A stretch of 64,000 bases of DNA from NCBI GenBank assembly GCA_905178155.1, contig CAJINV010000022.1:372001-436000 (forward strand). Direction: 5' to 3'. Under the pieces are notes generated by a model. That model saw nothing but the letters and a program-made list of their open reading frames with translations. It was not told where the DNA came from and did no database searches. Positions within the stretch are counted from its first letter, which is position 1. Every line of letters starts with the position of its first letter. The stretch is from Amoebophrya sp. A120 (taxonomy: Eukaryota > Protista > Dinoflagellata). A program made the translations under genes and the position numbers. Of the stretch, positions 1 to 64,000 are shown in pieces.

Positions 1-102
1 CACGACGAGAAATGAAATTTGTAATGCGGATTGAACTTGAAAAAAAAAAAATTGCAATGCGTAAATACGATTAGTACGAGTGCGATGCTTTTGCAATGCA
101 TA
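1..102. mobile_element. Introner family A, right part only
   Basis: Ends TACGAGTGCGATGCTTTTGCAATGCATA, the family A right TIR. Confidence 0.8.
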
Positions 103-1074
103 GAACAGTTTGAAGGACACGTTTGTCACGATCAACGAGACCATTTACGACTCCAAGTGGGCGAAGCAGTACCACGCGAACGAGCGTCTATTGTGAGGAA
201 AAATCCCCCCTCCCTGTATTGAAACGGAAATTTGTCTTGCTGGATTTGTGTACACAAAACAGCTCTGTCTTGCAGAGAGACACTGCAGGCAACGCCTAAG
301 CCTGTGTAGGTGGGTTTTGATGTAGGTGCTTAGCATAGCAGAGGCCTGCCATGTAGCCGCAGCAGCAGCACAAATCGCCCGCATAGGCCGGCGGATTCTT
401 TGGATTTGCCCTCTTGCAAGAGAGACAGGATTTGTGGTCACATATCAGCATCGCAAACTTTTAGGAACGTACCTGCTCAATATGGGGAGGGGGGATTTTT
501 CCTCACAATAGCGTCGGGTGACTGTTTTGAACATCCGGAAGGCGATGAAGGTCCGTCCGGTATCCCGTGTAAAAACGTCCCCACCCCAGAATTTTCATGC
601 AATTCTGCATGCCAAAAAAGTTTCTCATGCGGAGCCCTATGAGAAGCCGCGTTCTCCATTCGTGTTTTGGAATTTGTGATGCAAGAATCAGCATGCTACC
701 CAAGATCTGTGATGCTTCTGAACTAGCTCAACAGGATTACACTACGAGGACCACAAACTTACCATACCAAACAACCAAGGCTGGTTGATTTGTCTAGCAC
801 AGTTGCCATCTTGACTCTGGTGTGGGGACGCTTTTAATCAGGATATCCGGGCTTGGACTTTTACAAAAACGGGAAAACGGAGGAGGAGCACATGAATGTC
901 GAATACGGCAAGGTGATCGAATTCGATCTGCAAAAATGCACTGCTACGGTGGAATGGACGACCGAAGCTGGCTGGTTTTCCAAGGCGAAGACGCAGACCT
1001 TCGACTACAAAATCGGCCCGGTCGGGAAGTTCGAGTTGGCCAAGTGGTCCAAACACGAGCGAGATCAGTACTGA
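103..1074 (+). CDS. 3' part of a gene encoding a MIB/HERC2-like domain protein (5' end outside window); exons ~103-188, 516-560, 851-1074
   Basis: Removing elements 189-510 and 561-845 plus one TSD each gives a continuous frame NSLKDTFVTINETIYDSKWAKQYHANERRVTVLNIRKAMKVRPGLDFYKNG...YGKVIEF...ATVEW...DYKIGPVGKFELAKW...*. This resembles the Mib_herc2 pattern (RV.RGPDW...GTV...V.W...YR.G..G.YDL); recognised by eye. Confidence 0.65.
189..510. mobile_element. Introner family E
   Basis: TIR TATTGTGAGGAAAAATCCCCCCTCCC; TSD GCGTC. Confidence 0.9.
561..845. mobile_element. Introner family F
   Basis: TATCCCGTGTAAAAACGTCCCCAC...GTGGGGACGCTTTTAATCAGGATA; TSD TCCGG. Confidence 0.9.
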
Positions 1075-2263
1075 TCGATTCTGTCGTACTAGTGGAACGA
1101 CACCTTTCACCATCAGTAGAGGCGAAATTTACACATCGCAGTGCTGTAGCTGAGCGACATAATATCTGACCGCGACAACTTCAACTACGTAGAAGATCTT
1201 CACGAGGTGATGTATATTTATGAGCAGCAGCTGCTGTTAGCTGCTGTTCGTGTAGTTCCTCGACCCTTTGAGCTATTTTTCCTGCTTATTGACTATGTTG
1301 ACATCGAAGTCAAACCTGATGACGAGTTTTACTTGTGTAAAGAAATTGCAAGTGCAAGACGAAAAGATTAAATAGGACTAGTCTAGTACAACTTCTTTGG
1401 TGCATCTGATGATTCAAATCCCAACAGCAAGAGCGAGCCGTTTGGAAAATCACATTTCGAAGAAGAACCGACGATAGAAGGCGAGATAGTCGTCGAACTG
1501 TTGTAGGCCGAAGTAGTACTAGCATCTGGTGCAAGAAGAGGAACCGCTGTTGGTAGTACACAATTTTAGGACACAGAGCGACCGTACTGAGGAGAAGGAC
1601 AAATGATTGATTGCTGCGTATAGACTTGTGCCGCTTGGGCTTGTGGCCTCTCGCTCAGCTAGTTTCAAAAAATTTGCAAAAAAACAAAAAATCGAAAGAG
1701 TCAGAAATCGCGGCGCAGTGCAAGTCGGCTCCACCGTTGGAGCGAGCCGGCACGCTATAGCAGCATACTATGCTTCGGTGTTCGCACGATTCTTAGCAGA
1801 ATTCGTCATTCATATACAGCTTGCAATTCTTGAAATCGTGCTGTCGGGGATATGCTTAGTTGTGGGTCTTCTAAATTATTGGCTCCTCGAAAGAAAAAAG
1901 CCGTCGAGAGGGTCGTTGCAAAATTTTCGTCTGCCTGCAAATCGTGTCTCATAGATACCTCAGAAGTGGTGAGCCGTCGTTACTTATTAGTCACCACACA
2001 ACATCAATCAAAAGGTCCCCATTCAAGATATCTGAAATTGGAACTGTAGTCCCAATCGTGGTTACCAATCGTGAATAACGATATCGATAAGAGTCAAAGC
2101 TAGAGTGGCCAATTTGTTACTCGTGATCGTGTCCTCTCATGGTACGACGCTTTTCGAGCAGCAGCTTCAGAGTTTACGGTTTTTGTTGAATTGAAGTTAA
2201 GCGCATTGCTACTGCCTTTCTACCAATCTTCTTTTGCAGAAAGAAAAATCAAAGATCAAAAAA

Positions 2264-5200
2264 ATGTCCGGCGGTGGAGGCGAGCAGGCTTTCTACTACC
2301 AAGTCGTTCTGCCCGACAAGGAGCAGGCGACCGGGGAGTGGTCACAAATGGACCAAGAAGCGACGGCCGCTGTTGCGGTTTTCGTGATTCTGAAGCCTTA
2401 CTCCGATATCACGGAGTACAGCGGGAACGCAATTGTCACGTCAACGAACAGCAATCTCGAGGGGATCAAGAACGAGCATCTGTGGCAGAACAAAGGGTAC
2501 AGTAAAGGCGCCGACGCGGCCCTGCATAAAAAATGCGCGGGACAATCCGGGAACTTGACCAAATTGTCAAAATTGTGCAAAGAAGCCTTGGCGGCGAGGC
2601 GCGACGGGGTGAAGAGGAGGGCGAGGGCGAGACGGGATGACGATAGAAGAGCGGGGAACAGTAATGCTGATATCACCCCGCCCGCAAGTGGGAGAAAGTA
2701 CTCCAATACGATTTCTCCGAGTCCAAGACAGCCGAATTCCCGATCCGTCTCCAAGAGTCCACGGCCGACAAAGCCGGGTGCGAGCACGAGACAACCGGTG
2801 TTGCAGGGTTACGCATCCGGTACAACAACTTCGCCCAGGTTTCCCGGAGCGGACGATGCTGAAACCACGTGCGACCTACCTCTCCAACCACCACTCCAAG
2901 GGATTCTGAAGCACACGACTAATACGTCAGGTACAGCTAGGGACAACCAGCCGACCCCGGAAGCTACCGATGAGGAAGATGATTACGGCGGGATGACTGG
3001 GGCCCAGAATAAACGGATGCGACGGGGAAACACCACGACCAAAATCGCTTACCGCGGCACTGAGACGACCATTCCCTTTTCCCAGCGGGAGGATGTGACG
3101 GGGGTCAGGGAGAAGGTGATTGTCGGCAGCCGAAAGCCAACCGCCAGCCCGAGACCAATGAGCCAAGTGGGCGCACCGGTTCCGCACGGGTTGAAGCCGA
3201 GCCCGCGACCTCCAGGAGGGAACAATACCAGTCGGAACGTCACGCCTAGGTTGGAACCGGGGTCGGCGCGAAATGCGGGATCGGGGAGTGCCCAGCCAGC
3301 TTGGATGAACAGCGGGACGAATAAGCAAATCACGCCAAGATTGAACCAGCGGCAGGGCACGGCGTTTGCGGAGGGGAGTCACCTGTCGCCGGATGTTGAC
3401 GATCAACGAGAAGGTGATGTCTCTGCGGGAAGCCAGGGCGAGGAGGACGATGATGAAGCGGACTTTTCCATCCCCGACGAGTACAATTATGTTGTTGTGA
3501 CAGAAGATAACAACTATGTTAACGACGAGGAAGATTGCTCCTGGTCCTGCAGCTACGACTCCTGTGGTGATCAACAAGAACAACAACATCCCTCGCGATC
3601 TCACTCCAAAACGTCCTACTCAGCGAATTCCTATTCCTTCCAAACGGCGCTTGGTGAGAGCAAAAGCGTTAGTGCAGCTGAACAGGAGAAGTTGCAGTCC
3701 CGGTCCGGTTCCGGCACAGCAAATGACGAAGACCAAGTTGCCTCTATCAACGAGCTCTATCTCGAGGAGGGCGCCCATGCCGCCGTCGACACGGACAACC
3801 CGCTGAACAAAAAGCCCAAAGAAGGAAAGAAGGATATGGGGTTCTCAAACGTTACATTCTCAAGCGTTACATGAATTTGTAATGCAAGAATGGCAAAAGG
3901 AAAAGAAAAGTGAAAGGGGAAAGCGTGCGCCTTTTGGTTTTGCATTACAGGTTTGGCACGGAGTCCAATGCTATTTAGCGCGTCAAGACCTTGCCATGCG
4001 AGGCAGCTTGATGATGTAGATACTGACGAGAATCGAATAGCTTCGCCCGCTCGGCGTGACAACGCAAACTTGCGCTAGAATGGGTAGTAGGGTTAGTGGG
4101 GGTGGTGGGTGAGGAAGCAAGGAAGGCGGCTCACTCCTGGGGGGAGGGAGACCGGCCCCAACCTCCCGTCCTGTAGGAACGCGCAGCCGCTTGCGCGAAC
4201 TTTTTTCGCAGAGGCGCAGTGGTACTCGGTAGGGAACACACGCGAAGCCTTCGTTGGGGGATGGCGCCGCAGTTTCCCGGGCGCGGGGAAGACCGCCGGA
4301 AGCCCCCCCCCCTGTTTGCGCGATTCTGTCCCTGCGTACGTATTGAGGGTCCGACTTCTTACTTTTCCTGCGTACACATCAGAACCACCCAGACAGTAGA
4401 GGTCGCTTCTGCAGCAATGAAGGAACTAAAGTCGCCCTCTCCTGCTGCCACGAAGAAACTTTTTAGCCCTCTATTGCGCAATACCCCGCGCAGGATAGAC
4501 GATGGCGATGATGATGATGATGATGATAAGACGATGATAAAAAAGCAAATGATCGATTAGAAAAGAAGATACGCATCCAAGGCTTTTAGAAGTTCAAGTC
4601 GCGCGGCCGGCCACGCAGTCATGCTGGCTAGCCGGCATGCGAGATCTGCAGTAGGCCAGGCCCAGGAGCAGGAAACGATGATCAAAAAGCTACGCCGGGC
4701 ACGTATGCCACAGGCGAGGGCGCGGGCAGGTTGCTTCGTCCTCGCGCTGGCGAATCCGTAGGGGCCTTGCTGCGGTTCATACTTACAATCGCCCCACCCT
4801 CTCATATCCACGCTTCATCTCCGAACAGCGACGGTCTAGCTTTTGCTTTTCTTTTTACCACTGCAACCATTTACATTCATTTAGAGAAAGCCTAGCTTTT
4901 ACCCATTGCTATACTAAGCTCTGTCGTTGTGTTGTTGGCGCCATCGCTCCTTTTAGTAAGTCTCCATCATTGGCGCGCCGTCTTCTCCTGCAAGTGCAGC
5001 CGCGCATCTAGTAGAAGAAGCCTTATTTGAAACATTCTCCACTCCGCAACCAATGTCGAAGCCTGATTTCCCAAATCACCCGGATGAGAAGGGGCGGAAG
5101 GTGGATTTAATTCGGGGCGCCATGTACCACCGGCGCACGGGTTCGGAGAGAGAGGGGCGCGCCGACGGCGCAAACCGTGCGGAATACATCTGGGTCGGGG

Positions 5201-8200
5201 ACTCGAAGGCCGCTAGCGGCCACGTTGTTTGCTGGTTCTCCACGTCGCAGGAACCAAAGGGACAAAAGGGGCCCGGCAGTGCTATGCTTGCGGGCGAAGA
5301 TTGGTGGCTGATATCATGGCGCCCGGGGAAGTACATCATGGACCTGGACTGCCGAGCCTCGGAGAATTTTATAGACGTGGCGGATCGCGCTTTCCGCGAG
5401 TTGCGGCCTGGCGCGACTCTGCGGCCGAACTATTTCAGAAATATCTAAGGACAGGGCGCCGAGCTAGAGGCTGTAGACGAGAGCGAGTTTTTGGGAAGTC
5501 TCCGCGGCTAGGTTGTCACGCTGTTTCTGTGTTTTCAATTTCAAGACCCAAACCCCAACGCTGATTTTCGATTGCAGTACATTTGTCAAGCGGCACGCTA
5601 GCAGCCCCGTGCGCGTGGCCCTCTTGCGCATGTTGAGGAAACGCCGCGCGCATCGAAAGAATGTTTTTCCCTGTGCCTGGAGCTCGAGCGTGTGTGGCGC
5701 CACTGTTGTGCACGTGGTGTCATTAGAACGAAGTGGACGCGTTGGCGTCTGTAGCCAATGTTGCCTCCTACGTAGGAAGCTGCTTGTCGATGGGTAGTTG
5801 AAATGTGGCGCCTCGATCGGTCTACTTTCGTCTTCCGCTCGGCTTCTTCTTTGCGTTAGGGCGCTGCCACGCGCCACTTGTCGGTCCCTCGGTCGTCGCT
5901 TGCGCGGAAAAAAGTCAGGCCGTTCGTGTTTTGGAAGCTGAAAAACAAAAATGAAGCACGGCCCCCGCCTCGCCTTTGAGGAAATGGCGCACGGTGCAGC
6001 TTGCTCTTCGCCGCTATCTTCTCGGATAGGAATGAAGGCGATGATGATGAAGATGATGACTGAAGAGTCGCGGCTATCTCATGAATGATGACGATGATGG
6101 TGATTATTATCCCCGCCCCACGTACATGATGACCATGATGATCAATATGATGACGATGGTGATGAAGTGCGGGGGGCCCTCGCCCCCCGGCCGCGCCCCC
6201 CCCGCCCATTCGATATGATGACGGTGATGCGTCGCGATTTTCAGTGCAGAGTATGACTCTAAGACTGCGATGAAGATTTCAAGATTGAAATAGTGACGGT
6301 ATGAAAGTGTTTATAATTTTTCCATGATGGAGATTATGGATGAGATTGAGACGAAGGCTCTGAGATCGAGATAAGTGCGGGGGGCCCTCGCCCCCCCCCG
6401 CACCCCCCCCGCCCATTCGATATGATGATGGTGATGCATTGCGATTTTCAGTGCAGAGCATGACTTTAAGACTGCGACGAAGATAGTGACGGTATGAAAG
6501 TGTTTATAATTTTTTCAAGATGGAGATTATGGATGAGATTGAGACGAAGGCTCTGAGATCGAGATAAGTGCGGGGGGCCCTCGCCCCCCCCCCGCACCCC
6601 CCCCGCCCATTCGATATGATGATGGTGATGCATTGCGATTTTCAGTGCGAAGTAGGATTTTAAGACTGCGATGAAGATTTTAAGATTGGAATAGTGGTGG
6701 TTTGAAAGTGTTTATAATTTTTCCACGATGGAGATTATGAATGAGATGGAGGCGAAGACTCTGCGATCGAGATAAGTGCGGGGGGCCCTCGCCCCCCCCC
6801 CCCCCCCCCCCCCCGCCCATTCGATATGATGATGGTGATGCATTGCGATTTTCAGTGCAGAGCATGACTTTAAGACTGCGATGAAGATTTTACGATTGGA
6901 ATAGTGATGGTATGAGTGTGTGTATAATTTTTCCAAGATGGAGATTATGAATGGGATTTAGATGAAGGCTCTGCGATCGAGATATTGTGTCTGAGATCGA
7001 AGATTATGACTTTCGAAAAGGGCTTACGACTTTAAGATCGCGATAAGGATTCGGAGATCGAGATGATGGATTATGATTTTCTAAATGAGATTATGACTTG
7101 AAGATCGAGATAGTGGCTCGGTGAGTGAGATGATGATTGTAAGATTGATGATTCTCAGATCAAGATTGAATTTTGTGAACTCTGTGAATTCTGTGAATTT
7201 TGTGAACTCTCGCGAACTATGTATGATGTGTGATGAAGAAGAACTCAAAAGGTTTAGTGAACTCAAAAGGTGCACTGAACACAAAAGATGCACTGAACTC
7301 AAAAGGTGCACTGAACTCAAAAGGTGCATTGAATTCAAGAGATGCGCTGAACTCTTTTGAATTTTTGTTAAAGTTGTAGATATGACTATCAATGAGAATT
7401 TTGCATGGCAAAAAAAAACAAGTTAGTAACAGTTGAGAATGTAACGCTTGAAATTTCCATAAAGGAGAAACCCCCCAACCTCCGGGTGTCCGAAGATGGG
7501 AACAAGTTCAAATTCAACGGGGAGAAAACTTTATCCCTAGACGACACCTTCCCCAACCCGACGTTTTTAAAAGTGATGCGCACCCGCAACATTTCGGAAA
7601 AGGACCCGCATTCCCGCTTCCCAGGGATGCAGCCGAATTTCTTGCAAAACGCGAGCCGGACGACACAGAAACTGTACCAGAACATGCCTTTGTCCACCGC
7701 CCCGCCGGGGAGAAAGCGCTTGACGGTCGAAGACGTCGAGCCGAAGAAGCAGGATGACTCGAAGAAGCTCCCCTCGAACCAAGTCGCGATCAAGCAGTAC
7801 ACAATTCATAGGGGGGGAGGGATGTTAAACGAGGAGGACGACGATGAGCTGAAGACGAAAAACGGCAGCAAAGCCACGCGGATGCAGTTGAAAGGAACGG
7901 AGGCGTCTCCGCGTGATCCTTTTGTCGACTACGGAATGCAAAATAAGTCCCGTAGCCGTACACGACGAACAAAATGCATCACAAATTTCGCCAACAGACA
8001 CTGCAACACTTGTCATGCTGACTAGGAATTGAAGGCGAGTTTTGTCATGCAGCAAGAGCATGCAACCAACATCTTCCACAACTGTTGTACATAACTTCAT
8101 CGTGTGCGGGAAATTTCCTGTTCATATCGACGGCACGGAAATAACCCCCAGATCCGTCGCGGCAATTGGTGCTGATGACTTCACGAACAACCTGGAGTAT

Positions 8201-9275
8201 TTCGAGAAACTCGCGCCGTTTGAGATTTTGGAGACGAATTTGGTGCCGAAAAAGTTCCCGATGATGAAATGCTTCCGGATTCTCCACATTTCCCTACCGG
8301 CTTTTCCGAGGGAAAGCAGGGACGACATCTTCGATAGTAGCAACGATCCGAGTTCCGACAGCAACGAGTCGGACTCCGCGTTGTTAGGCGATTTACGGCA
8401 AAGAAGGAACAAAGACAGCCTTCCCGGCGATGACAGGGCGCGGAAAAGGGCGCAGAAGCAGAAAAATAAATCCTCCACCGCGAAAAGGAAGGAAAAGGAG
8501 CAGAAATTGCTGACCGAAGTGTCGAAACTACTTTTGGAAGAGGTCGTGGAGACTGAAGCGGAGGCGGAGGAAAGGTTACGAGCGGGGTTTCGGGACACGC
8601 TGTGGTACGCTCTGCACTTCTATCACAGGGAAAAGTGTTTTAACGTTAGCGGAATTTGTGATGCAGTATATGCATCACATAAGGTGCCCAAATTTGTCAT
8701 GCATAGCATGCATATTAGGCAAAAACTGGCACACGTGACTGCATTCTGTGAAAACCGTTAACGTTATCACTTTTTTGCTTGATAACTTCGGACACAGCAC
8801 GGAAGTGACGTATTACCAAAAACAGATGGCGGAGGAATTGGAGTACGAGAAGAGGAGACAAAACCCAGACGCGGAACAAGACGAAGACGGGCAAACAGAT
8901 CCATCAAAACAGCACGAAAAGCAAGCGCGCGGCCAGCCCCGGCACATGAAGCTGGCGTATCCAGCGATAGGCTGCGGGTCTCTGAACTACCCGCCGAACC
9001 TTGCGGCGGGGCACGCGTTCGGCGGGTGGATGGAAGTGATGCGGATTTTGAAGGGGTCACTGTATCCGACGTTGGTGACCATCGAGATCCGGTTTGGCGG
9101 GGATATTCGGACCTTCAACGCGTGGAAAGAAGTGTCGGATGCGTTTTTGAGAAGAAACGTGAAGGACGAGCACGGTCGGAAGGTGAAGCAGATGCAGGCG
9201 AAAATTGACGGTCGAATGGAGGAAAACGTGAAGTGTTGCGGGCTGTTTGCGGAAAGGAAGCATTATCGACCATAG
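2264..9275 (+). CDS. Macro-domain (ADP-ribose-binding family) protein with long disordered N-terminus, ~1002 aa; exons 2264-3834, 7467-7929, 8132-8620, 8790-9275
   Basis: AAAAATG start; three TSD-flanked elements join ORFs 2234-3874, 7405-8025, 8042-8761 and 8748-9275 in frame (3009 nt). Motifs LQNAS..., TIHRGGG, RILHISLP, LRAGFRDTLWYAL and LAYPAIGCGSLNYPPNLAA match, in order, macro-domain VNAAN, AIHRAAG, VIHAVGP, L..AY..SL and IAFPAISTGIYGFP...AA. Confidence 0.75.
5053..5448 (+). CDS. Possible 131-aa cargo ORF inside the insertion nested in the 3835-7461 intron
   Basis: ATG-initiated, GC-rich, globular-looking ORF; no family recognised. Confidence 0.3.
   Translation: MSKPDFPNHPDEKGRKVDLIRGAMYHRRTGSEREGRADGANRAEYIWVGDSKAASGHVVCWFSTSQEPKGQKGPGSAMLAGEDWWLISWRPGKYIMDLDCRASENFIDVADRAFRELRPGATLRPNYFRNI
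6165..6984. repeat. Tandem repeat, 4 copies of a ~193-210 bp unit with GGGGGGCCCTCG(C)n tracts
   Basis: Units start AAGTGCGGGGGGCCCTCG at 6165, 6373, 6566 and 6774. Confidence 0.9.
7171..7354. repeat. Minisatellites: 9-bp T(T/C)TGTGAA(C/T) x~5 and 18-bp GAACTCAAAAGGTGCACT x6
   Basis: Directly visible at 7171-7218 and 7241-7354. Confidence 0.85.
7930..8126. mobile_element. Introner family J (degenerate, TAC start)
   Basis: TSD TCGAC; ends ...GTGTGCGGGAAATTTCCTGTTCATA. Confidence 0.85.
8621..8784. mobile_element. Introner family H
   Basis: TATCACAGGGAAAAGTGTTTTAACGTTA...TAACGTTATCACTTTTTTGCTTGATA; TSD ACTTC. Confidence 0.9.
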
Positions 9276-11574: not shown

Positions 11575-12369
11575 ATGGCCTTCAATAACGCCCCCACACC
11601 CGCGGTTTTCCCATGGATGCCAGAGCGGTATCACAAGAAAAAGTGTTAACGTTAACGGAATTTGTTATGCTGTGATGCATCAGAAATGGTGCGCAAATTT
11701 GTATTGCGTAGCATGCATGGAAGACGAAATTTGTAGTGCATGACTGCAATCTATGAAAACCGTTAATGTTAACGCTTTTTTGTTTGATAAGCGGGGCAAG
11801 GTCTCCATGATCGCCACACCGATAATGTACGCACTGCAAATATGTCTGGGTCTGGAAGGTTGCAACTTGTGATGCTATCTCTGGATTCTGAAAAAAATTT
11901 GTATTGCATGACCAGCAAGACGAGGAGTCCTCGGAGTCCAGTTTGCTCTACGCGGAGAGGCCATTTCTCATGCGGAGTAGGCATCAGGAAACCGTCTAAA
12001 AATCTGTGAAGATGCTACGTCATGCATTACAGGCGTTATGGGTCATGGAAAATCTGCATGACAAGTCCAGACCCCGACATGTTTGCATTTGATACTATGA
12101 CCGCGGGGACGAAACGAAACCCAAGTAAGAAATGGTGGAAGAGAAATCCAAAAATGATCCGGCAATCCATCTTCCTCCTGGACCCGCTACGACGGCCGAA
12201 CTTCGAGGAGGTCCACGCGTTTCAGTGGATCGGAATGAAACCGAATGAGAATTTGCCGATAGGGATGAGGAATTACTTCGCGCGGCCACGGGTGCAAACC
12301 CCGGGAGACAGGCCGAAGCAGATACGATCATTCGGAATTTGGGGAGGGTTTGGGAAGGACTTCAGGTAA
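11575..12369 (+). CDS. Hypothetical basic protein, 118 aa; exons 11575-11628, 11795-11827, 12100-12369
   Basis: CAAAATG start; removing two elements gives MAFNNAPTPAVFPWMPERGKVSMIATPIMTAGTKRNPSKKWWKRNPK...GGFGKDFR* (357 nt). Confidence 0.7.
11629..11789. mobile_element. Introner family H
   Basis: TATCACAAGAAAAAGTGTTAACGTTAACGG; TSD AGCGG. Confidence 0.9.
11828..12094. mobile_element. Introner family B
   Basis: TGCAAATATGTCTGGGTCTGGA...TCCAGACCCCGACATGTTTGCATTTGATA; imperfect TSD TAATG/CTATG. Confidence 0.85.
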
Positions 12370-12559: not shown

Positions 12560-15411
12560 ATGAACTTCCTCAGGAGAAAACAACAATGTACATCGGTCAG
12601 CCGAGTTTTGCTGGATTTCAATCCGCAAATAAAGTAAGGAGGATCTTCAGGACAGATAGAAGGAATCCTCGTAAAATAGAAGCCCGTCTACTTCTCCGTC
12701 GTGTTGATCATCTGCAGGACCCCTTGCCCTACCTGAATGACAATGAGGAACTTCTATATCATGAGAAGTTTGACCCTTGAAGAATAAACATCAACTCATC
12801 GGACTTAGAATTCTCTCCTCCTCCACAAAACAGCGAAGTGAAACCGGAAACACCACTCTCCCCACGGCTCCTCGTATCCAAGGAAGAAAGTGTTACAGTT
12901 ACACATTTGATGTTGGAATTTCAGCATCACAAATTTGCTCTGCATGGCGAAGAAAACATGTAATGCGCAGACTACAAGGGAAAACACGAGTGGAATGAGG
13001 CTGGCACGCGTTTCTTGCATGACAGAGGTTGTCTGTCTTGCTTGTCTTGCATGAGAGTGTGTAACTGAAGCACTTTTTTCTCACGATACCTCGAGCGCGA
13101 AGCGAACTGGGACGTACGGCACCACGCGGTCGTGAAGAACGAGGGATTTCTATCCTTTGTAAAAACATTCCCAACGCATAGTAAAGTTACTAGTTGGTAA
13201 ATCTGCAAGACAAATCTCTAAGCTAAGGGAGTTGCGCATGACAAGTTTCCGTCTGCAGTGTAGTGCTGGTTAACAAAGGCAGCGGCATAAGAAAGCCACT
13301 TTCTGATCCTATTTAGCGCAATACAAATGTTGCCAAAACACGATCATTGGAAATGCCTGTCATCATGATGCAGAGGCGCATTACAAACGTTGCTGTCATT
13401 GCGCATTTGCATGACAACTCTGGGTTGGGCACGTTTTTGCTCAGGATAATTTCACCAGTTCGAACGCAGTTACTTCGGTCGAATCCGGGACTTTGACCAT
13501 GGCTTCGACCCCGATGAACCAGTATCGACGCTCTTGCAGGATGAAATGCGATACGACCTGGACCAAGCCTTGCTCGCTCTCGAAAACCGAGCGGACAACC
13601 GGCTGAACAGAGGCACGGGGAATTCTCGGTCGATGAACCAACTCGCTTTGGCAGATCAGGAACATCAAAATAACTCTGCGACAGTGGACGATAGTGCGAA
13701 AGAAGCTGTGGAGAAGATTTTGTTGGTAAACAACGCAGAAAACAACGAGATGAACAAGTCCTCCAGTTCTTCTCTAGCAAAAAACATCAAAACCCTCCAG
13801 CAAGAGAAGGAGGAACTCGATCGGCAAGAGTCGGAGGCGCGGCAGGAACGGCTGAAGAAGGATTTTAAGATGCCCGTGAAGGAGAGGAGAAAGTTGGAAG
13901 CGATGGAAAAGGACTACCAGAAGCAGCTGCTGAAAACGAATTTAGCGAAGATCAAAGTCGGGTTTGAGAAGGAAAAGCGAAACTGGAAACCGCCGAAGGG
14001 GGGATTGGATTTACACTTGGAGCTGTTGGAAAAACACGGATATCCTGTGCAAAAGTATCGTACTCGTACAAAGACAAATGCAAGTCTTGCATTACATACA
14101 AATCTTATTATTTCCAAGGCAAATCTGCATTACAAATTTTATTTCTCATGCTGAGGACGAAATTTGTAATGCATTTATACGAATACGATACTTTTGCAAT
14201 GCATAACGGAGGCGCGATGCTTGGCGGCACCAGGTACGGTGGCAGGGGCGGGAAGGGATCCAACCTCCACTTCATGCTGGATGTATCCGGTGCAAAAGTA
14301 TCGTACTCGTATTGCAATCATGCATTACAAATTTTTTTCTCAAGGCAAAACAGCATTACAAATTTTATTTCTCATGCTGAGGGAATTTGTCATGCATTTA
14401 TACGAATACGATACTTTTGCAGTTCATAGGATGACCCGTTAGGCGATACGACGAGTCTCGACATGGGAGCCAACGCGAAGAGGGCGATGCTTGCGAAAAA
14501 CAACGGGTTGAGTACGACAAAACGTAGGAGCGGATCGCTCAGTGGAACGAGGAACAAGCGGTATATCTCGCGTTTTGTCATGCAGATTAGGCATAATGAG
14601 ATTGTGATTATCATGTCAACATTGCAAAATGTTTCTTGTTTTAGCCTGTAATCATGTTGTGTTTATTTTAACCACTCTACATCTACAGAGCCATCCTTTC
14701 CCCGCGCAGCGCAAACGGCGCGCCACAGCTCCAGAATGTGCCGGCGGTGGCAAGACTGTCCTACCAGCGCCAACCGTCCTCTCCACGGACTATCCAGAGA
14801 TTGGAGGACCGGCCCGGCTGGGACAACAATTTCCAAGTATGCATTGCAAATATGTCTGGGTCCGGAAGATCCCAAGACTTGTAATGCTGAACGCGGTATA
14901 CTCGTGAATCCTGTAATGCATGGCGCGGAATAGCACTGCGTCCCTCTGATGCAACACGCACTACAGGAGCGCTAAAATTAAAACTTGTCATGCGTGGCTT
15001 CGTATGTGCATTCAGTTTGTCATTCATGTATTAGCATGAGAAGTTTCCAGACCAACCAGACATGTTTGCATTTGATACCAAGTGCTGCTCGACAACGAGA
15101 AAGCTGCGGCTGGGAACCGAAACTACTTCGATCGGAAAGTGGAGAAAAAATCCAACTACGTGGAGAGCAGATACGCATTGCAAAAGGATCGCCACTGTAG
15201 TAGAAATTGCATGACAAGTTTGAGTGGCAAGAAGAAAAATAGGATTTGTGATGCTGATTCATGTTGCCAAAGAGGTTTCTCATGCGTGATTGCAATGAAC
15301 AATTCCTACAACTGCGATCCTTTTGCAGATGATAGCAGGAATTTCGCGCGGATTTCCGATCGACCGGTCGTCACAGGAGTGCTCGGCGTCAGTGTGGATT
15401 TGGACATATGA
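12560..15411 (+). CDS. Hypothetical coiled-coil protein (~420 aa) with two W-D...N...R-x-Y-F motifs; 5' end uncertain
   Basis: Six TIR elements (12875, 13151, 14041, 14284, 14838, 15172) plus putative GT-AG introns 12634-12833 and 14561-14688 give one frame containing NWDVRHHAVVKNEGFHQFERSYFGR and GWDNNFQVLLDNEKAAAGNRNYFDR, stop at 15411. Confidence 0.6.
12875..13088. mobile_element. Introner family D
   Basis: AAGTGTTACAGTTACAC...GTGTAACTGAAGCACTT; TSD CCTCG. Confidence 0.9.
13151..13448. mobile_element. Introner family F
   Basis: TATCCTTTGTAAAAAC...GTTTTTGCTCAGGATA; TSD ATTTC. Confidence 0.9.
14041..14205. mobile_element. Introner family A
   Basis: TIR core TGCAAAAGTATCGTA; TSD ACGGA. Confidence 0.9.
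14284..14428. mobile_element. Introner family A
   Basis: TIR core TGCAAAAGTATCGTA; TSD GGATG. Confidence 0.9.
14838..15077. mobile_element. Introner family B
   Basis: TIR core TGCAAATATGTCTGG; TSD CCAAG. Confidence 0.9.
15172..15334. mobile_element. Introner family A (TAC start)
   Basis: TGCAAAAGGATCGC...GCGATCCTTTTGCA; TSD GCAGA/GCAGG. Confidence 0.85.
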
Positions 15412-16703: not shown

Positions 16704-17800
16704 ATGTCGACCTTTGACTACTATGCCCGCATGAATGGGCCGGCAACCCGGAACATGATATGGGTATTACAATGAAAAATGCCCCCACCCCGGAAGTTGC
16801 ACGAGTTTCCCATGCAAAGTTTCCAAGTGAATGCTTTTTGTCTTGCATGAAAGGACTGCGAGCCACCTTTCTGATGCAGTATTAAGGTGCGCAAGGTACG
16901 TTCTGCAAAACAGATCCGGCTGTTGTTGGGCTCCTTTGCAACACAGACTTGAGCTATTCAGCATGGAAGATTTGTGATGCCGATATATACAAGACGGGGA
17001 ATGTTTTTATTGGAAAGGTTGGCAATACAAATGTTGCCAAATCTTGGTGTGGGGACAGTTTTCTTTGTAATAATGGGCCGAGGTAGTACACATGGAGACG
17101 AAGGACCACCTATGCACTCTGCAAAAGTATCTTACTCATATTCAGTTACTAAAATCGCTGTCATGCATCTTCACAGATTTGCTTTGCTTTCTTCATTACT
17201 TACTTGGCTATGCATGACAAACTCGAAATGCGAAGATTTCTACGCGTAAACGAAATTCGTCATGCGAATATTTCTACGCGTACGACTACGATGCTTTTGC
17301 AATTGCATACCACCTGTACCACTGCAACAACTCGAAACTGGATATGGCACTCTCAACTGTTACATTCTCAACTGTTACACGAATTTGTGATGCAAGAATG
17401 GCAATAGTCAAAGGGGCAAGCTTGCTGCTTTCGCATCACAGATGTGGCTCAGATTTAGATGGTGTTTAGCCTCTCGGAGATTTGTCATGCGAAGCAGCTT
17501 GACCATCTGGCGTTTTAAAGTAGTCTTGCATGACAAATTCATGTAACAGCTGAGAATGTAACGTTTGAGAGCTCCATATTGGATGACTTTCAATCGATCG
17601 AGGGCTGCGAAGTAGGCGTGAAGGATTTCTACAAGCCGACCCTAGCGTGGATAAAAAACAAGTACTTGATCTTACATCTTTCTACCACTAACTCACGTCG
17701 AACTGCATATTACTGTACGTTGTTCCGCATGAAGATCATGAGTGCGACGTTCTACACGCGACACGACCCTGCTCGTCGCCTAATTAGCAATATGCTGTAG
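16704..17800 (+). CDS. Small hypothetical protein; exons 16704-16764, 17078-17110, 17315-17342, 17584 onward; 3' end uncertain (17800, or 18013 via a GT-AG intron 17662-17847)
   Basis: AAAAATG start; removing three elements gives MSTFDYYARMNGPATRNMIWAEVVHMETKDHLYHCNNSKLDDFQSIEGCEVGVKDFYKPTLAWIKNK. Confidence 0.6.
16765..17072. mobile_element. Introner family I
   Basis: TATTACAATGAAAAATGCCCCCAC...GTGGGGACAGTTTTCTTTGTAATA; TSD ATGGG. Confidence 0.9.
17111..17309. mobile_element. Introner family A
   Basis: TGCAAAAGTATC...GATGCTTTTGCA; TSD CCACC. Confidence 0.85.
17343..17578. mobile_element. Introner family C
   Basis: CTCTCAACTGTTACATTCTCAACTGTTACA TIR; TSD CTGGA/TTGGA. Confidence 0.9.
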
Positions 17801-51111: not shown

Positions 51112-51267
51112 TATGCACTGCAAAGGTATCGCTATCGTACTAGTAGAAATAGCATCACAAATTCGGTCAGCATGGCAAATGGCATTTGTCATGCTGTTTT
51201 ACCTTGGCATTGCGATTTGTAATGCATGACTTTGATTACTACCAGTACGATGCTTTTACACTGGATA
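51112..51267. mobile_element. Introner family A (same site as 50047-50205, in the duplicate)
   Basis: Family A TIR; TSD ATCTT. Confidence 0.9.
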
Positions 51268-51350
51268 ATCTTCACCGCGTTGCAATTCGGCGACGCCATG
51301 TACAACGACGCGAGCCCGGAATCCGCGGCGACGGTCAGCCGGATGTGCAC

Positions 51351-51560
51351 TATCGCAAGAAAAAAGTGTTACAGTTACGCACTGTGTTCTTGCAGGAGCC
51401 GCAAGGCAGCCAACCTTTGTCATGCAGGAAATGCTTGCGAGCCTCGTTTACTACGTGTTTTCCCTTATGATCTTTGCATTACTCTGCCACATAGAGAAAA
51501 TTTGTGATACAGAAACTCCAACAATGAGTGTAACTGTAACAGCACTTTTTTCGTGCGATA
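51351..51560. mobile_element. Introner family D
   Basis: TSD TGCAC; empty site (single TGCAC) in the upstream copy at ~50440-50444. Confidence 0.95.
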
Positions 51561-58613: not shown

Positions 58614-61600
58614 TTACATGTCCAACAATTCGTCTTCCCTGTTCGCAAACTCGCTTTGGTGTGGATTGAACAGAGACTGAATGTCCGAGATAAAAGTCCC
58701 CGGCTTTACAACAGGCACGATCAGTTTCCGTCGTCTTATCTTTTTCGGCGTCCGTGCGGTTTTCGAGGTAGTACCACTTGATCTGCTCTGATCGCTGGCC
58801 CCTATCAAGAAGAAAAATCCCTCCTCCCCATATTAAAGCGGAAGGCTATGATGCAGATTTGTGGCCACAAGTCAGCTTTGTCATGCTAGAAGGCAAAAAT
58901 ACGGACTGTAGTGCTGGGTGGCGTGGGACAGCCTTGCATCTTCAGCATGACAGGGGGCAGCTGGAAGCGGGAAACAGCATGACAAATTGCCTGCAAATGA
59001 GGCCACAACTGCGGCTCTTGGCCTTGTAGCAATACAAGTCGATTTGTGTACTCAAATACAGCATAACAAATTTCGTTTTCGATATGGAGAGGGGGAATTT
59101 TTCCTTGCAATAGTCCCGCCGGTCTCTTTATTACTCTTGCCGCCCGTTGTTCCTGATTTACTGTTTTCCGTCCCTTCGCCTTTTGCCCCGCGCAAGCTGC
59201 TGGTCGCCGCTGCGCGGGATTGTGCCTCCGCCACGACACGGTCGACAATCTTTTCCGGAATGTGCTTCAGCCCGTCACTGGTGTCAGGCTCCGTGGAAAT
59301 TTCTTCGACCGTCGACACCAGATTTCTGCATTCCTGTTCTCGCTCCTTCTCGTAAAACATAGACTCGGCCCACAGCTTCTCGCCGGGCGATGGCCGTGAC
59401 GGGTTTTGCGGCACGAAGAAGGGGGAATTTTCGTTGAACTCGTGATTCCTTCGCATGACGTAGTACCGGTTCTTCTGTAAAAGCTTTTCCTGATACATCG
59501 GCAGTGCTTGGTAGGCAATTACGTGCCAAAGCTGTCGATCATGCGCTTCCCCATTGTTATCATTGAAGGCATCACTGTAGGAAGCAGCTCCGCTGTGGTC
59601 ATAAGCCGAGGCATATCAAACGCAAAAATGACTGGGTCTGGAACAGTGGAACTTGTGATTCGTGTCTTGCATTCCTGGAAAATCTGTGTTGCATGAGCAG
59701 CAACAGAGAAACTTACTTTGTCATGCAAGAACGCAATTCGTGATGTGTGGTAGGCATCAGCAGGCGCCTCTAAAACTTGTCATGCCTGGCTGCCATTGCA
59801 AGCGCTTCAATCATGCTCAATCCAGCATCACAGATTTCCAGACCCAGACATTTTTGCATTTGATAAGGCAGCTCCTTCGTCCTCGTAGCCGTACCCACCA
59901 CCTGGACCTCGGGCAGCGCCGGCAGGGGAAGATGGTGAGCCGGCGTGGCTGTAGCTCTGATCGTACGGATGTTGCGCCCCCTCTGCAGCAGCTGCGAAAG
60001 GGTTCGCAGGACTCGTATGCAGTGCAAAAGTATCGTACTCACAGTAATTGCATTTGTGCATAATTGCCAAGGTAAATCAGCATTTACAAATTGAATTCGT
60101 AAGGCTGCGCTAATTTTTAATGCAATTTAAATTTATACGTAGTACGATGCTTTTGCATTGCATAATTCGGGACGAAGGGCGAGAAACCGTATGGACCTCC
60201 TGCTCCTTCGCTGTGGTACAACGGGTTATTAAAAGTGCCGTGTCCGCCGGGAGGTGGAGCACCAAAGGGCCCTCGCCCCGGCGCGTAAAGATCCCCCTGC
60301 CGGTCGTATGGCTTGCTCAAACGTTACAATCTCAAACGTTACAATAGAATCTGAGATTTGTCTTGCATGAACAGCATGAGTACCATACAGAGACTTGGGC
60401 TTTTTGCAATACAAATTTCGTCAGAATCTCATGGGGTTTGGGGCTCCGAAACTTGTCATGCGCGCTTCTTTGGGAGTAGGCCAGATGTTGGGGATTTTGC
60501 AACACAAATTCCAAATTCTATTGTAACGTTTGAGATTGTAACACCTGAGCGGGTTATAGGTCGGTTCCTCCGTTGGAGCTCCAGGTGGTCAGTCCCATTA
60601 CAGTGAAAAATGCCCCCACCCCCAAAGTTGCAATAATTTGTGATGCGAAGTTTCCAAATGAAAGGTTTTAACGCCAGACCGTCCGTTACCAAAAACAATT
60701 TCAAAACAATTTCAAACTGAATTCAAAATGCCAGCGTTTTTGACGTTTTGGAGCGCTTATGTTCCCGCTTGCGCGGATCGTTGAGGGCCGTGCTGTGGCA
60801 TCTGTGCCCACTTGATAGCGGGTTTTGGGTGCGCCAGCTTCGTGTGGCGCCTGTCTGAGGGATACAGGGGATCTTCGTTGGAGTTGCATTTTCGGAGCTC
60901 GCCCAGGTATGACACCAACCCGGCCAAAATGGCTCGGGCGGTAACACGGGGGCGGGCGGCTTCAGAGGGTCAAAGGAGCCCGCTCCGTCTGTTGATGGCA
61001 CGTTGCAGGCACGCTGCCTGATGCGCCGCCTTGCCTTCTAGGCGGGCCAGATGTTCCCATGGAGCGCACCGGTGACGAGACGCGAAGTCCCCGGCGGCTC
61101 CCGGGGCGCGAGCGGGGGGTTGGGGGGGAAATGTGTGCCCGCAACTGCATTTCCACGGCCTTGCTGTTCCGTTCGTTTTTTGTGAGCTGGTGGCAAGTGG
61201 CGTTGTGCGGTTGCACATGCTGCGATGCTTAAGATTGGCATGGGCTGCAGAGGGCGGGGCCCAGCCATCAACTGCGTGCCGAGGCAGAGGGCAGAACGCT
61301 TTGGGGTTCTCAGGGGATGGCGGCTGGGTCCAGCTTTCGCCACATGTCAAGGCGATGCGCCCTGACATGTAGCACGAGACGGACCCCGCATTCAATTTCA
61401 AAGCGAATCCGCGAATTCAAAACGAATCCGCGAATTCAAACTGAATCCGCGAATTCAAACTGAATCCGCGGACTCCTTTTCAATTTCAAACCAAATCCGT
61501 TGCTTCCTGGAGGGGCCCCACCAATTTCGAACTGAATCCGAATTGCATCCGAATTCCATCCGATTTCCATCCGAATTCGATTTCCCTAATAAGGAATTGG

Positions 61601-63879
61601 ATTCGGATGAAAAACGGATGGAATTCGGATTCCGTTTGAAATTGGTTGGATCAATTTGGGGTCCAGTCTGATGCCATCTTCTACATTACAACAGAGTCTC
61701 TGGGCTAGGTTGTACATTTTTTGGCGCGCGCTGCCGCGCGCGCCAATATCCATGTGTCTTTCAGTGCCCTTCTCTTTCATTCCGTGTCGGCTCGTTGGCG
61801 GCGTGGCGAATTGTGTTTCGTGGGGCTGTGTTGCAGCCTCTGAGCAGCAGAGTGGGTTGTCTCAGGTGACGCCGATCGTTTTCGCGCAGCCTTGCTGGTT
61901 TGGATTCGATTGAACCTACACCACCTGCGCGCGGCCTCTTGGGCGTTTGGGGCGAGCGAAGTAAAGGCGCGGGCCATGGACGGGCGCCGGTGGGGAGCCG
62001 GCGTCCCGCATGGAGCGCTTCTGCTCAGATTGCAAGGCCTTGGCCGTGAAGCACATGGGCCCTGCAAGTGCGCCGCCAACGGAGCTGGGGCTTCGTTCAT
62101 TCGAAAATCTTCGTCGAATGTGGATGACCAACCCGGAGCAGCTCCCTCTTCCGTGGTCGTGTTGCATCCTAAGTGCGCTTTCTACTTCTATCTTCTTTTC
62201 CCGCTTATGCCGCAAAGCCTTGCCGCGCTGTTCATCTTCCTTGCCCAGTCTGTACAGAATGTCGCGCGTCTGTCGAGCTTCTCTTCCTGCCGTGCCCGTG
62301 GTGGCATCTGTGGCCATGATGAGAGGGCTTTCGGTCGGAGGCCCTTGCGCAATTGCGTGCGGTTTCTGTGCTTCTGGGTGAGGCACTACAGGCCATGCCC
62401 GATGCGTCTCAGCAAGCTTTTCCAACTGTGTCTTTTTGAAAGCTGAGGCATTTTGAATTCAGTTTGAATTCAGTTCGAAATCGAATTACACGACGGCACG
62501 GCCAGAGTTAAAAAGGTTTTTGTCATGCATGAAAGGAGTCTGAATCTTTGTGATGCAGAGTCTTCTTGGCGTATATAGCATTGCTTGCATGATAAGCGCC
62601 GCTTTTGCTGGGATCTTTTGCAATACAAATTTTCGCTATTGACGATTGGAAATCTGTGATGCTGATAGATGCAAGAGGGCGAGTGTTTCACTTGGAAAGG
62701 TTTGCAATGCAAATGCTCCCGAGAAGTTCGGGGGTGGGGGCATTTTTCATTGTAATAAGTCCTCCTGCGTCTTTGAAGGTAGACATCTGGCGGCCCTGGA
62801 CGGCAATCAGGCGCACGATGTCGTGTTCGTCGAAGCCGATCTGGGAGTGGCGCTTGAACCATCTCTATGCATTGGTTGCAAATGTCATGTCTGAGTGGTC
62901 TGGATTTTTTGTGATGCTGGACCTAGTATCAAGGACAACAGCTTCATCTACATGTGATCTGTAGTGCATGTATACGATTATGGCCAGCTTCTTTCTCTTT
63001 GTCGTGCTGGATATGGAAGTTTGTTATTTGCTTGTTCTGCATGCGAATGAATCTGCAAGAAATAAAGTGAAGAAGGAAATAACTTCTCATGCTCTTCTGC
63101 CGTACAGGCAGCGCAGCCAGTATGTAACGCAAGTATAATCAGCAACACAAGTTTCCAGACATGATCCAGGGATGATAAGTATTTGCAGATCCATAACTTC
63201 ATGCGGGTTCCCGACTTCTTGTACCTTCTCCTTTTTTTATGGATTGCAAAAATGTCTGGGTCTGGAAGGATGTAACTTGTCATGCTGGTCTTGCATTCCT
63301 GTGAAAGCTGTATTGCGTGACCAACAAAAATGGTAGCCTCTCATGTCATACAAAAACGCAGTTTCTCATGCGGAATTCGGATGGGAAAGCGTTCTGCAAA
63401 CTTGTCATGCTTTTCTGCATAAGGAAGTGTTTTCCTCTTGCACATTTTAGCATTACAAGTTTCCAGACCCAGACATTTTTGCATTTGATATATTTTGGAT
63501 AATCGGATCCAAACCACACACCCCCTGCGAATTTTTGTTTCGCCCCGCGCCCTATCAAATGCAAAAGTGTCTGCATGTCTGGAAACTTGTGATGCTGGGT
63601 TGTGAATAATGAAAGCAACTGTAATGCACAGCCAAGCAACATGAGAAATATCTGCGCTTCTTTGTGTTGCGTTTTTCGCATGAGAAACTGCGTTTTTGCA
63701 TGACAGGCAAGAAAAGGGTCTCTTCTTGGACACGCATCACAAACTTGTTGCTCATGCCACACAAGCATGACAAGTCTCGCAATCTTCCAGACCCAGACAT
63801 TTTTGCATTTGATACGCCCACATCAGTTTCGGGTCGGCCCAGGCCACCGGGTCTCCGGACCGAAAGTCGATGTAGGTGA
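58614..63879 (-). CDS. 3' part of a hypothetical protein gene on the minus strand (5' end beyond window), interrupted by 8 complete introners
   Basis: Spliced frame TYIDFRSGDPVAWADPKLMWARGETKIRRGCVVWIRLSKKRRRYKKSGTRMKWFKRHSQIGFDEHDIVRLIAVQGRQMSTFKDAGGLTTWSSNGGTDRQGDLYAP...LWHVIAYQALPMYQEKLLQKNRYYVMRR...EDELLDM* stays open across all junctions. Confidence 0.75.
58803..59112. mobile_element. Introner family E
   Basis: GAAAAATCCCTCCTCCCCATAT...ATATGGAGAGGGGGAATTTTTCC; TSD GCCCC/GTCCC. Confidence 0.85.
59614..59865. mobile_element. Introner family B
   Basis: Family B TIR; TSD AGGCA. Confidence 0.9.
60016..60164. mobile_element. Introner family A
   Basis: Family A TIR; TSD ACTCG/ATTCG. Confidence 0.85.
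60307..60558. mobile_element. Introner family K
   Basis: GTTACAATCTCAAACGTTACAATAGAAT TIR; TSD GGTCG. Confidence 0.9.
60668..62511. mobile_element. Non-autonomous DNA-transposon-like insertion (1844 bp), TTAAC...GTTAA termini, 7-bp TSD AAAGGTT
   Basis: AAAGGTT at 60661-60667 and 62512-62518; subterminal inverted repeat TTCAAACTGAATTCAAAATGCC / GGCATTTTGAATTCAGTTTGAA. Confidence 0.75.
61390..61640. repeat. 19-bp tandem repeat (AATTCAAACTGAATCCGCG) and short CCGAATTCCAT-type direct/inverted repeats inside the nested element
   Basis: Directly visible; unit resembles the element's subterminal repeat. Confidence 0.75.
62866..63195. mobile_element. Degenerate introner
   Basis: TAT...ATA ends with weak TGCAAAT/ATTTGCA inverted repeat, flanks ATCTC/ACTTC; removing element plus 5 nt restores MKWFKRH. 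Confidence 0.7.
63238..63490. mobile_element. Introner family B
   Basis: Family B TIR; TSD TTTTT/TATTT. Confidence 0.85.
63553..63814. mobile_element. Introner family B
   Basis: Family B TIR; TSD CGCCC. Confidence 0.9.
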
Positions 63880-64000
63880 TATAACGCGCTCAGCTGTTAC
63901 AATCTCAAGCGTTACAATAGAATATGGAAATCTGTGATGTAAGAAGTGCATGATGTAGCTTACTCCCACAGGCCTGCGCATGACAAGTTCTAGAGTCCCA
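63880..64000. mobile_element. Introner family K, left part only
   Basis: TATAACGCGCTCAGCTGTTACAATCTCAAGCGTTACAATAGAAT matches the TIR of 60307-60558. Confidence 0.8.

Follow-up and report, generated by a model that had tools for sequence, protein, structure and literature searches.

The closest described counterpart of the elements reported here is the introner system of the dinoflagellate Amoebophrya sp. A120 itself. Farhat et al. (2021; PMC7789003) described its introners as sequences of about 240 nucleotides (nt), similar to miniature inverted-repeat transposable elements (MITEs), with inverted ends of the form TAT, 7 nt and AAA, direct repeats of 3-5 nt (one example of 5 bp), RNA-seq support and a mechanism of removal that was left open. 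A stretch of 64,000 nt of the A120 genome (positions 1-64000, hereafter the window) was analysed, and its elements are introner elements of this known system, because named A120 proteins match the window and the published description fits. After splicing of the window, the proteins P0001 and P0005, both named A120, were identical to it at 597/597 and 1367/1368 residues, and P0002 (2158 residues) matched the minus-strand gene at 416/416 residues when each element was removed with 5 nt. End logos showed TAT, seven variable nt and AAA (two families differ at positions 11-12 but keep the A at 13). The direct repeat at the border is 5 nt, perfect in 38/52 elements, and the elements occur in families, lack any GT-AG or GC-AG reading in 49/52 cases and are absent from mRNA in the 24 cases of removal. 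The preliminary description of this DNA had rightly placed introners among the known features of Amoebophrya, but understated what was known, this being the very genome of the original description.

New here are a fixed splice register and a strand-specific end code; the elements themselves were published in 2021. The border is variable or unknown in the account of Farhat et al., with a direct repeat of 3-5 nt, whereas here a 5-bp target-site duplication (TSD) is proven by empty sites, and a 4|1 register, strand-specific +2T/+3A, longer inverted repeats and a shared internal motif are added. No paper with a fixed register or a strand-specific end code for Amoebophrya was found in the literature searched, which mostly excludes subscription journals; judged from text and legends, Fig. 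3 and Figs S21-S23 of Farhat et al. may already show part of them. PMC11282704, PMC11453091 and PMC6679479 are cited for the analysis as a whole.

Three further systems invite comparison. The nonconventional introns of Euglena, 5'-N3CDG...CH'GN5-6|R (Nomura et al. 2025, PMC12501133), likewise lack GT-AG and have an inverted motif at a fixed distance, a longer 3' spacer, a border blurred by direct repeats and a proposed MITE origin. In A120, by contrast, the spacers are 1 and 4 nt, the motif is TAT...ATA, pairing comes from prediction, and the exon start shows no evident preference for purines (G+A 67/124 at TSD position 5, among the matches listed). The euglenid signature N3-CDG...CH'G-N5-6 was absent, N1-TAY...ATR-N4 standing in its place, and the likeness is one of geometry only. 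Fritillaria borealis (Soo et al. 2026, PMC13326754) shares transposon-derived non-GT-AG introns and keeps a U2-type spliceosome, but it has U1 and the preferred ends AG-AC and AG-AT, whereas A120 has no constraint at positions +1, -1 and -2, and U1 has not been found there. MITE-type introners (Gozashti et al. 2022, PMC9860276; 2025, PMC12130899) are scar-free introns derived from DNA transposons and enriched in genes, and A120 is listed there with diverse introners bearing terminal inverted repeats (TIRs). Those examples carry GT/GC and AG or co-opt them from the target; the A120 elements need neither.

Removal from transcripts and splice register

Elements were detected by an inverted-end scan blind to the TSD, followed by an end-library scan and a catalogue (Table 1). 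In two shuffled windows the TSD-blind scan found no inverted-repeat pair scoring above 12, while many elements scored 14-26.

For the study of removal, contigs of runs X1 and X2 were taken as RNA by guess (RNA-like), and run X5, of unrecorded kind and with an even depth of about 44, was regarded as DNA-like. The comparison covered the best 15 of 358 joints and the best 24 of 14190 contig pieces, and rare forms may be hidden. Over 13449-15940 the RNA-like contigs were 861 nt shorter than the genome, which equals e10-e13 with 5 nt each plus a 128-nt GT-AG intron, and over 19686-23127 they were 1048 nt shorter, which equals e18-e21 with 5 nt each. Other RNA-like pieces begin or end at e4, e5, e9 and e17. 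The annotated proteins, built from transcript alignments and the sole basis for junctions in 46000-64000, add e35-e42 and e45-e52 to the removed set, the 2.2-kb e49 included. Removal of element plus 5 nt was thus seen for 20 elements in A120 proteins and for 8 in RNA-like contigs, 24/52 distinct, and the earlier reading, excision of RNA (or DNA) away from GT-AG signals, was borne out at the RNA level for these 24.

That the frame would be restored at every site held more narrowly. A longest-frame test, unreliable near gene ends, chose removal of element plus 5 nt in 39/52 cases; protein or RNA data settled nine of the other 13, and the claim does not extend to e6, e8, e9 and e17. Continuity had also been claimed through actin, macro and His-box motifs. 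It was confirmed for actin, with profile position 150 on both flanks of e25, but not for the other two: no macro domain was found at E<=0.01 in the 33 pieces scanned, and a single exon holds the fatty-acid-hydroxylase (His-box) domain, which no element interrupts.

The position of the junction is described by the offset j, the number of bases of the upstream TSD copy that are kept. It can be read where the two copies differ, because the transcript base shows which copy supplied it. At e18, j is 4: both contigs end at 21062, and P0001 is identical to the spliced window for this value only. The offset is at most 4 at e13 and e37, at least 4 at e45, e47 and e51, at least 3 at e50, and at least 1 at e17 and e20. 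The sole value common to these nine informative junctions, one pinned and eight bounded, is j=4; all six tests at the protein level that followed e18 agree with it (P=0.013 under uniform offsets). The other five of the 14 imperfect TSDs were uninformative, being synonymous (e16, e25, e36) or without data (e7, e23). Four nt of the upstream copy and one nt of the downstream copy are therefore kept (register 4|1), and the intron would accordingly read N-TAY...ATR-NNNN genome-wide. The preliminary description had left the junction free within the TSD; this was not sustained, a single register fitting 9/9 informative sites.

With j=4, and with no other offset, T is the second intron base in 52/52 elements. 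All nine predominant non-canonical pairs listed for A120 in Table S4 of Farhat et al. (PMC7789003) have T second, with a possible effect of the aligner. In the same table the predominant borders of strain A25 are all TT-NN and its repeats start with TTA, which would again give +2T/+3A despite another transposon end.

Alternatively, removal could occur at the RNA level with a cut that slides within the TSD, the register being an artefact of few sites and of aligner or annotation choices. Only e18 is pinned exactly, the published inverted repeats lie 1-5 nt from the splice sites (PMC7789003), and e27, e32 and e50 permit GC-AG or GT-AG at other offsets. However, the residue at a mismatched TSD is set by the transcript base and not by the aligner, the three upper bounds and the four lower ones converge on 4, and the published spread is what the alignment ambiguity of perfect TSDs would be expected to produce. 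A sliding cut is thus considered improbable.

Strand-specific end bases

An independent set was obtained by an end-pattern search of one metagenome assembly (at least 130 loci, 516 kb), in which the first three end bases were ignored during detection; all counts from this set refer to the matches listed. These elements are up to 95% identical to those of the window, and their TSDs were perfect at 5 bp in 216/306 cases and at 6-9 bp in none. From the 306 elements, 21 with less than 3/5 TSD identity were dropped, 124 were oriented by length of the open reading frame (ORF) and 135 by a codon model that agreed with confident ORF calls in 114/118 cases; 26, one of them an end variant, were left unoriented. 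The pooled oriented set comprised 311 elements, 52 from the window and 259 from the metagenome.

In this pooled set end position 1 was other than T in no case at the 5' end and in 11 at the 3' end (p=0.001), and end position 2 was other than A in none at the 5' end and in six at the 3' end (p=0.03, a direction not predicted beforehand). The bases +2T/+3A are invariant at the transcript 5' end, the mirror bases varying 17 times, and the ends are therefore not functionally symmetric, contrary to what had been proposed from their appearance; the transcript strand thus requires +2U and +3A. Read on the sense strand, the two asymmetries amount to A>G and T>C, which makes a single mutational bias behind both unlikely. 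Departures at end position 3 numbered eight at the 5' end and two at the 3' end (p=0.11), and positions 4-16 were symmetric.

The bases at +1, -1 and -2 correspond to the exon background, singly and as pairs. Of the features of a U2-type intron, GT/GC at +1/+2 and AG at -2/-1, only the +2T is kept. The base at -7 was A in 309/311 pooled elements (strand asymmetry p=0.11); the window alone gave a hint of asymmetry, with five TAC at 5' ends and no GTA at 3' ends (p=0.057). The metagenome elements at L029:1598-1850 and L026:2906-3208 carry another base at -7 (CTA and GTA ends, the strand call of the latter being weak).

Probable excision from pre-mRNA

The reading preferred here, at about even confidence, is that a modified major spliceosome excises the elements from pre-mRNA, recognising +2U/+3A and locating the 3' site by distance instead of by AG. 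Elements enter coding exons in either orientation and duplicate 5 bp of the target, and their terminal repeats may bring the intron ends together. Cuts in the pre-mRNA would fall 1 nt ahead of the left arm and 4 nt beyond the right arm (one site shown, eight bounded). The spliceosome, as the probable catalyst, would use +2U/+3A and find the 3' site by its distance from the element end, with the A at -7 as a weak candidate for the branch point.

Of the bases at spliceosomal 5' sites, +2U varies least. Both +2U and +3A agree with the canonical GTAT and GTAC introns of the window, and a single transcript loses introns of both kinds, canonical and element (the contig with e10-e13). The spliceosome is favoured because the sole strand-specific bases are the spliceosomal +2U/+3A, because the machinery except U1 is reported in A120 (83/89 spliceosomal proteins and U2, U4, U5 and U6; PMC7789003), and because canonical introns can share the repeat layout, present in 15% of those of A120 (PMC7789003). 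It is also favoured because there are precedents for free ends and for fixed 3' spacing: in Fritillaria the processing of mostly non-GT/AG introns is attributed to a conserved U2-type spliceosome (PMC13326754), and Giardia and Trichomonas have a fixed spacing from branch to 3' site.

Several points weigh against the spliceosomal reading or the register beneath it. The register is based on nine junctions, six of them from annotated proteins rather than reads; the RNA nature of X1/X2 was guessed, and contigs conceal rare forms. According to the legend of Fig. 3 in Farhat et al. (PMC7789003), the splice sites vary in position with respect to the hairpin. When codon preference was tested on 56 TSDs with a single mismatch, 31/56 went in the predicted direction overall; the register was matched at positions 4 and 5 (8/10 at each) but not at positions 1-3 (15/36). 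The 259 oriented metagenome elements showed no preference for G at +1 (68/259 against 71 expected), for AG at -2/-1 (21 against 18 expected) or for any pair of first and last bases (chi-square p=0.54), although splicing is said to require that the two terminal bases of the intron form a non-Watson-Crick pair. The asymmetry at -7 was not replicated in the metagenome set (3 against 2). No transposase was found in the 82 window ORFs scanned, and likewise none is reported in the text of Farhat et al. for A120 (PMC7789003). Finally, the role proposed for the spliceosome is deduced from sequence.

The same elements and the same 4|1 register could instead be served by a dedicated, Euglena-like RNA machine outside the spliceosome, either an endonuclease acting with a ligase or a protein with affinity for the paired ends; this is the main alternative, tentative yet deserving of weight. 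The complete indifference at +1, -1 and -2 would suit it, as would the removal of the 2.2-kb e49 as exactly as that of 150-bp copies, the failure to find U1 in A120 (PMC7789003) and the Euglena introns, whose fixed spacers of 3 and 5-6 nt flank an inverted motif and for which the usual spliceosome is thought not to be used (PMC12501133). Folding predictions also bring the ends together (z -3.4 and -4.8), with a mean pairing probability of 0.7-0.9 at end positions 1-3 and 11-14 and poor pairing at 4-10. Yet G-U pairs were not commoner than A-C mismatches (59:60 and 243:210 in two counts), and the sense strand folded better in only 25/50 elements, which is no advantage. Selection for RNA pairing of the arms was thus not detected, and young elements may give the G-U test little power. 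Against such a machine there also stand the strand-specific bases, which are solely the spliceosomal +2U/+3A, the exit of canonical and element introns from one transcript, and the occurrence of the same repeat layout in some canonical introns (PMC7789003). It seems rather unlikely that A120 holds a second nuclear, non-spliceosomal splicing machine that recognises the transposon ends in pre-mRNA (N-UA...AUR-NNNN), is blind to the flanks, would leave any genic insertion of these transposons without a scar in either orientation and is convergent with that of Euglena. The preliminary description had favoured dedicated machinery directed by TIR pairing or end recognition: end recognition is upheld, pairing under selection is not, and a dedicated machine is still a candidate, but one that would read the core of a spliceosomal 5' site.

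Self-splicing by a structure within the element would agree with the stable predicted hairpins and with an internal motif in 44/50 short elements. It is very improbable: the interiors differ across 8-12 families, act in both orientations and tolerate kilobase inserts, and no Rfam family was found in the window. Least probable of all is precise excision from DNA before transcription, in the manner of internal eliminated sequences (IESs), to which the TA-rich, symmetric-looking ends might point and of which a rare empty-site form could escape notice among the best 15 of 358 joints. Against it, X5 keeps e13 and e18 whole, at a single-copy depth of about 44 and with no alternative letters. Moreover, IES ends are strand-independent, whereas the end constraints here follow the transcript strand, and a unicellular lineage would permanently lose the excised elements.

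The fixed register would turn an ambiguous border into a precise code, one that specifies both terminal bases of the intron together with a candidate branch A. It could serve to correct the borders of tens of thousands of introns, and it would sharpen lariat sequencing, crosslinking of small nuclear RNAs (snRNAs) and the search for circle junctions in the A120 RNA data that already exist. If the spliceosome is responsible, the lack of any requirement at +1, -1 and -2 would stretch the accepted limits of its active site; if a separate machine is responsible, it would be a second case beside Euglena. A scar-free register also explains how elements can fill coding exons at little cost.

Element structure, insertion and genomic setting

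The window holds 52 complete elements and two cut by its ends (a right end at 102 and a left end at 63880); the two partial elements had been recognised before, the complete ones counted as 51. Fifty are short (138-340 bp), and e3 and e49 measure 3627 and 2162 bp. They are short non-autonomous DNA transposons, that is, MITE-like introners: short, bounded by TIRs, with a TSD of fixed length, non-coding and multi-copy. Over 5 bp the TSD copies matched perfectly in 38 elements, at 4/5 in 11, at 3/5 in two and at 2/5 in one, against 0.05 perfect 5-mers expected by chance; perfect direct repeats of 3, 4 or 6-9 bp were absent and those of 2 bp numbered five. Base usage in the TSD was unbiased. Oriented with the gene, the 5' end is TAT in 47 and TAC in five elements, and the 3' end ATA in 51 and ATG in one (e49), the last being the single CAT noted earlier. 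Among the 45 most similar pairs, related interiors lie in opposite orientation relative to the gene in 24 and in the same in 21. The 5-bp duplication of arbitrary target sequence, the TA(T/C)...ATA ends and insertion in both orientations, all put forward in the preliminary description, were thus confirmed, and its figure of about 12 TIR families is the upper value of a range of 8 to 12 that depends on the threshold. The inverted repeats reach 26 nt or more, and a GT-AG or GC-AG reading at any TSD offset was available in 3/52 elements only (e27, e32 and e50).

Across the 50 short elements the motif GCATNACAA was counted 103 times, whereas shuffles gave 3.8 (maximum 13 of 200); it lies in either orientation and is found in 44/50 of these elements. 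It was present in 246/259 oriented metagenome elements, and the 16.8 kb of non-genic DNA held a single copy. Apart from the first two bases, which it lacks, the motif resembles the end sequence seen most often, and this likeness suggests a transposase site common to all families.

Table 1. Features of the window. Element rows are based on the end-library scan and, for complete elements, on the TSD match; additional evidence is named under remarks.
Feature	Position	Strand	TSD	Remarks
Truncated element	1..102	+		right end only
e1	189..510	+	5/5	
e2	561..845	+	5/5	
e3	3835..7461	+	5/5	3627 bp; e16/e32/e33-type ends; nested insert; removal (ORF basis only) joins 1023-codon ORF
e4	7930..8126	+	5/5	TAC start; RNA-like contig piece starts 8127
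e5	8621..8784	+	5/5	RNA-like contig piece ends 8615
e6	11629..11789	+	5/5	host strand from ORF only
e7	11828..12094	+	3/5	TAC start; host strand from ORF only
e8	12875..13088	+	5/5	
e9	13151..13448	+	5/5	RNA-like contig piece starts 13449
e10	14041..14205	+	5/5	missing from RNA-like contig
e11	14284..14428	+	5/5	missing from RNA-like contig
Canonical GT-AG intron	14561..14688	+		128 nt; removed in same contig as e10-e13; has internal motif
e12	14838..15077	+	5/5	missing from RNA-like contig
e13	15172..15334	+	4/5	TAC start; removed in RNA-like contig; offset <=4; whole in DNA-like run
e14	16765..17072	+	5/5	
e15	17111..17309	+	5/5	
e16	17343..17578	+	4/5	synonymous, uninformative on junction
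e17	18433..18617	+	4/5	offset >=1; 3 nt past predicted stop codon
e18	21064..21403	+	2/5	offset pinned at 4, intron 21063-21407; removed in contigs and P0001; whole in DNA-like run
e19	21485..21792	+	5/5	removed in RNA-like contigs and protein
e20	21833..22074	+	4/5	offset >=1; removed in RNA-like contigs and protein
e21	22157..22294	+	5/5	removed in RNA-like contigs and protein
e22	24011..24167	+	5/5	actin-like gene
e23	24505..24658	+	4/5	actin-like gene
e24	24706..24867	+	5/5	TAC start; actin-like gene
e25	25268..25580	+	4/5	synonymous; actin profile unbroken across; opposite orientation to e19
e26	32892..33048	+	5/5	in 4610-codon ORF
e27	33189..33347	+	5/5	GC-AG reading possible
e28	33412..33678	+	5/5	
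e29	34371..34631	+	5/5	
e30	35245..35496	+	5/5	
e31	39226..39513	+	5/5	
e32	39932..40170	+	5/5	GC-AG reading possible
e33	41371..41600	+	5/5	
e34	41909..42120	+	5/5	
e35	45350..45506	+	5/5	removed in P0005
e36	46185..46344	+	4/5	synonymous, uninformative; removed in P0005
e37	47955..48176	+	4/5	removed in P0005; offset <=4, resulting Cys conserved in two orthologues
e38	48239..48396	+	5/5	removed in P0005
e39	48831..48987	+	5/5	TAC start; removed in P0005
e40	49699..50006	+	5/5	removed in P0005; paralogous copy empty at 51061
e41	50047..50205	+	5/5	removed in P0005; same site as e43 in paralogue
e42	50255..50405	+	5/5	removed in P0005; paralogous copy empty near 51310
e43	51112..51267	+	5/5	duplicated gene end
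e44	51351..51560	+	5/5	first copy empty near 50440
e45	58803..59112	-	4/5	offset >=4; removed in P0002
e46	59614..59865	-	5/5	removed in P0002
e47	60016..60164	-	4/5	offset >=4; removed in P0002
e48	60307..60558	-	5/5	removed in P0002
e49	60596..62757	-	5/5	2162 bp; ATG 3' end; e14-type with nested insert; removed exactly in P0002
e50	62866..63195	-	3/5	offset >=3; GT-AG at offset 3 also possible; removed in P0002
e51	63238..63490	-	4/5	offset >=4; removed in P0002
e52	63553..63814	-	5/5	removed in P0002
Truncated element	63880..64000	-		one end only

Insertion was read from a duplicated gene end (about 49680-50560 and 51061-51680) with three empty sites, each holding a single TSD copy; an insertion therefore consists of exactly the element plus 5 nt. 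DNA transposition with a 5-bp staggered cut would account for this (transposase not found). Reverse splicing of the excised intron as a route of insertion was rejected because the duplicated bases match each target. The region 49680-52180 is a tandem duplication of the gene's final 80 codons together with its 3' end. Residue 1343 of P0005 is Ile as in the second copy, and the gene model or some transcripts may switch copies, possibly via the left end of e41 and the right end of e43, which share a TSD.

Among known transposons, two of the Ginger2/Tdd group, TDD-4 and TDD-5, give 5-bp TSDs, and their TGT terminus is one base from TAT (Bao et al. 2010, PMC2836005). The elements here begin with TAT instead of the TGTNR termini of that group, TGT being found in 6/306 metagenome elements, and no integrase-like DDE transposase domain of this type was detected in the window (82 ORFs). 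An integrase-like TIR element has been reported in A120 and is described as lacking Ginger termini and TSDs (Gozashti et al. 2025, PMC12130899). No transposase domain of any kind was found among these 82 ORFs, taken from e3, e49 and 52150-58500, three matches (E 0.035-0.039) falling below the cut-off. The long transposase-bearing copies for which the preliminary description proposed a search were found neither there nor among the metagenome loci (516 kb), where the longest element is 593 bp. The long elements e3 and e49 consist of short-family ends enclosing nested inserts and, with no transposase domain, were rejected as autonomous parents. The elements had no match in the viral contigs searched, and local hopping was not evident in the window (11 same-family neighbours against 7.3 expected, p=0.10).

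Reading frames contain 51/52 elements, e17 lying 3 nt past a predicted stop, and the remaining sequence, about 16.8 kb, held none; introners are usually enriched in genes (Gozashti et al., PMC9860276; PMC12130899). About 2 kb of untranslated sequence under RNA-like contigs (9276-9431, 15453-15940, 18716-19199, 19686-19868, 22709-23127 and 26878-27134) is also free of elements; its GC content is 0.43, against 0.55 in insertion flanks and 0.53 in coding sequence. A preference for GC or selection could be the cause.

Three GT-AG introns are present in the window (14561-14688, 17662-17847 and 17897-18389); two carry the internal motif and may be old elements turned canonical. The intron at 17662 was rejected as a decayed element, its GT-AG reading to 17847 preserving the frame. 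Without its nine elements, 27466-43387 forms an ORF of about 4600 codons, with no Pfam match in the six exon pieces scanned and a first 5.4 kb free of elements. The gene with the fatty-acid-hydroxylase domain spans 44941-50556, and its orthologues in A25 and in a transcriptome set align across 7/8 element sites. The region 52200-57500 has an odd composition (GC 0.36, then 0.58), no elements, no Pfam match above cut-off and inverted repeats at 53130-53800 and 56028-56090, and is perhaps an unrelated mobile insertion. The nested insert of e3 (4050-7400) contains a 131-codon ORF (5053-5445) as well as a tandem repeat with units of about 200 bp (6155-6984), and that of e49 (60680-62500) has its own inverted repeat at 60698-60732 and 62447-62481.

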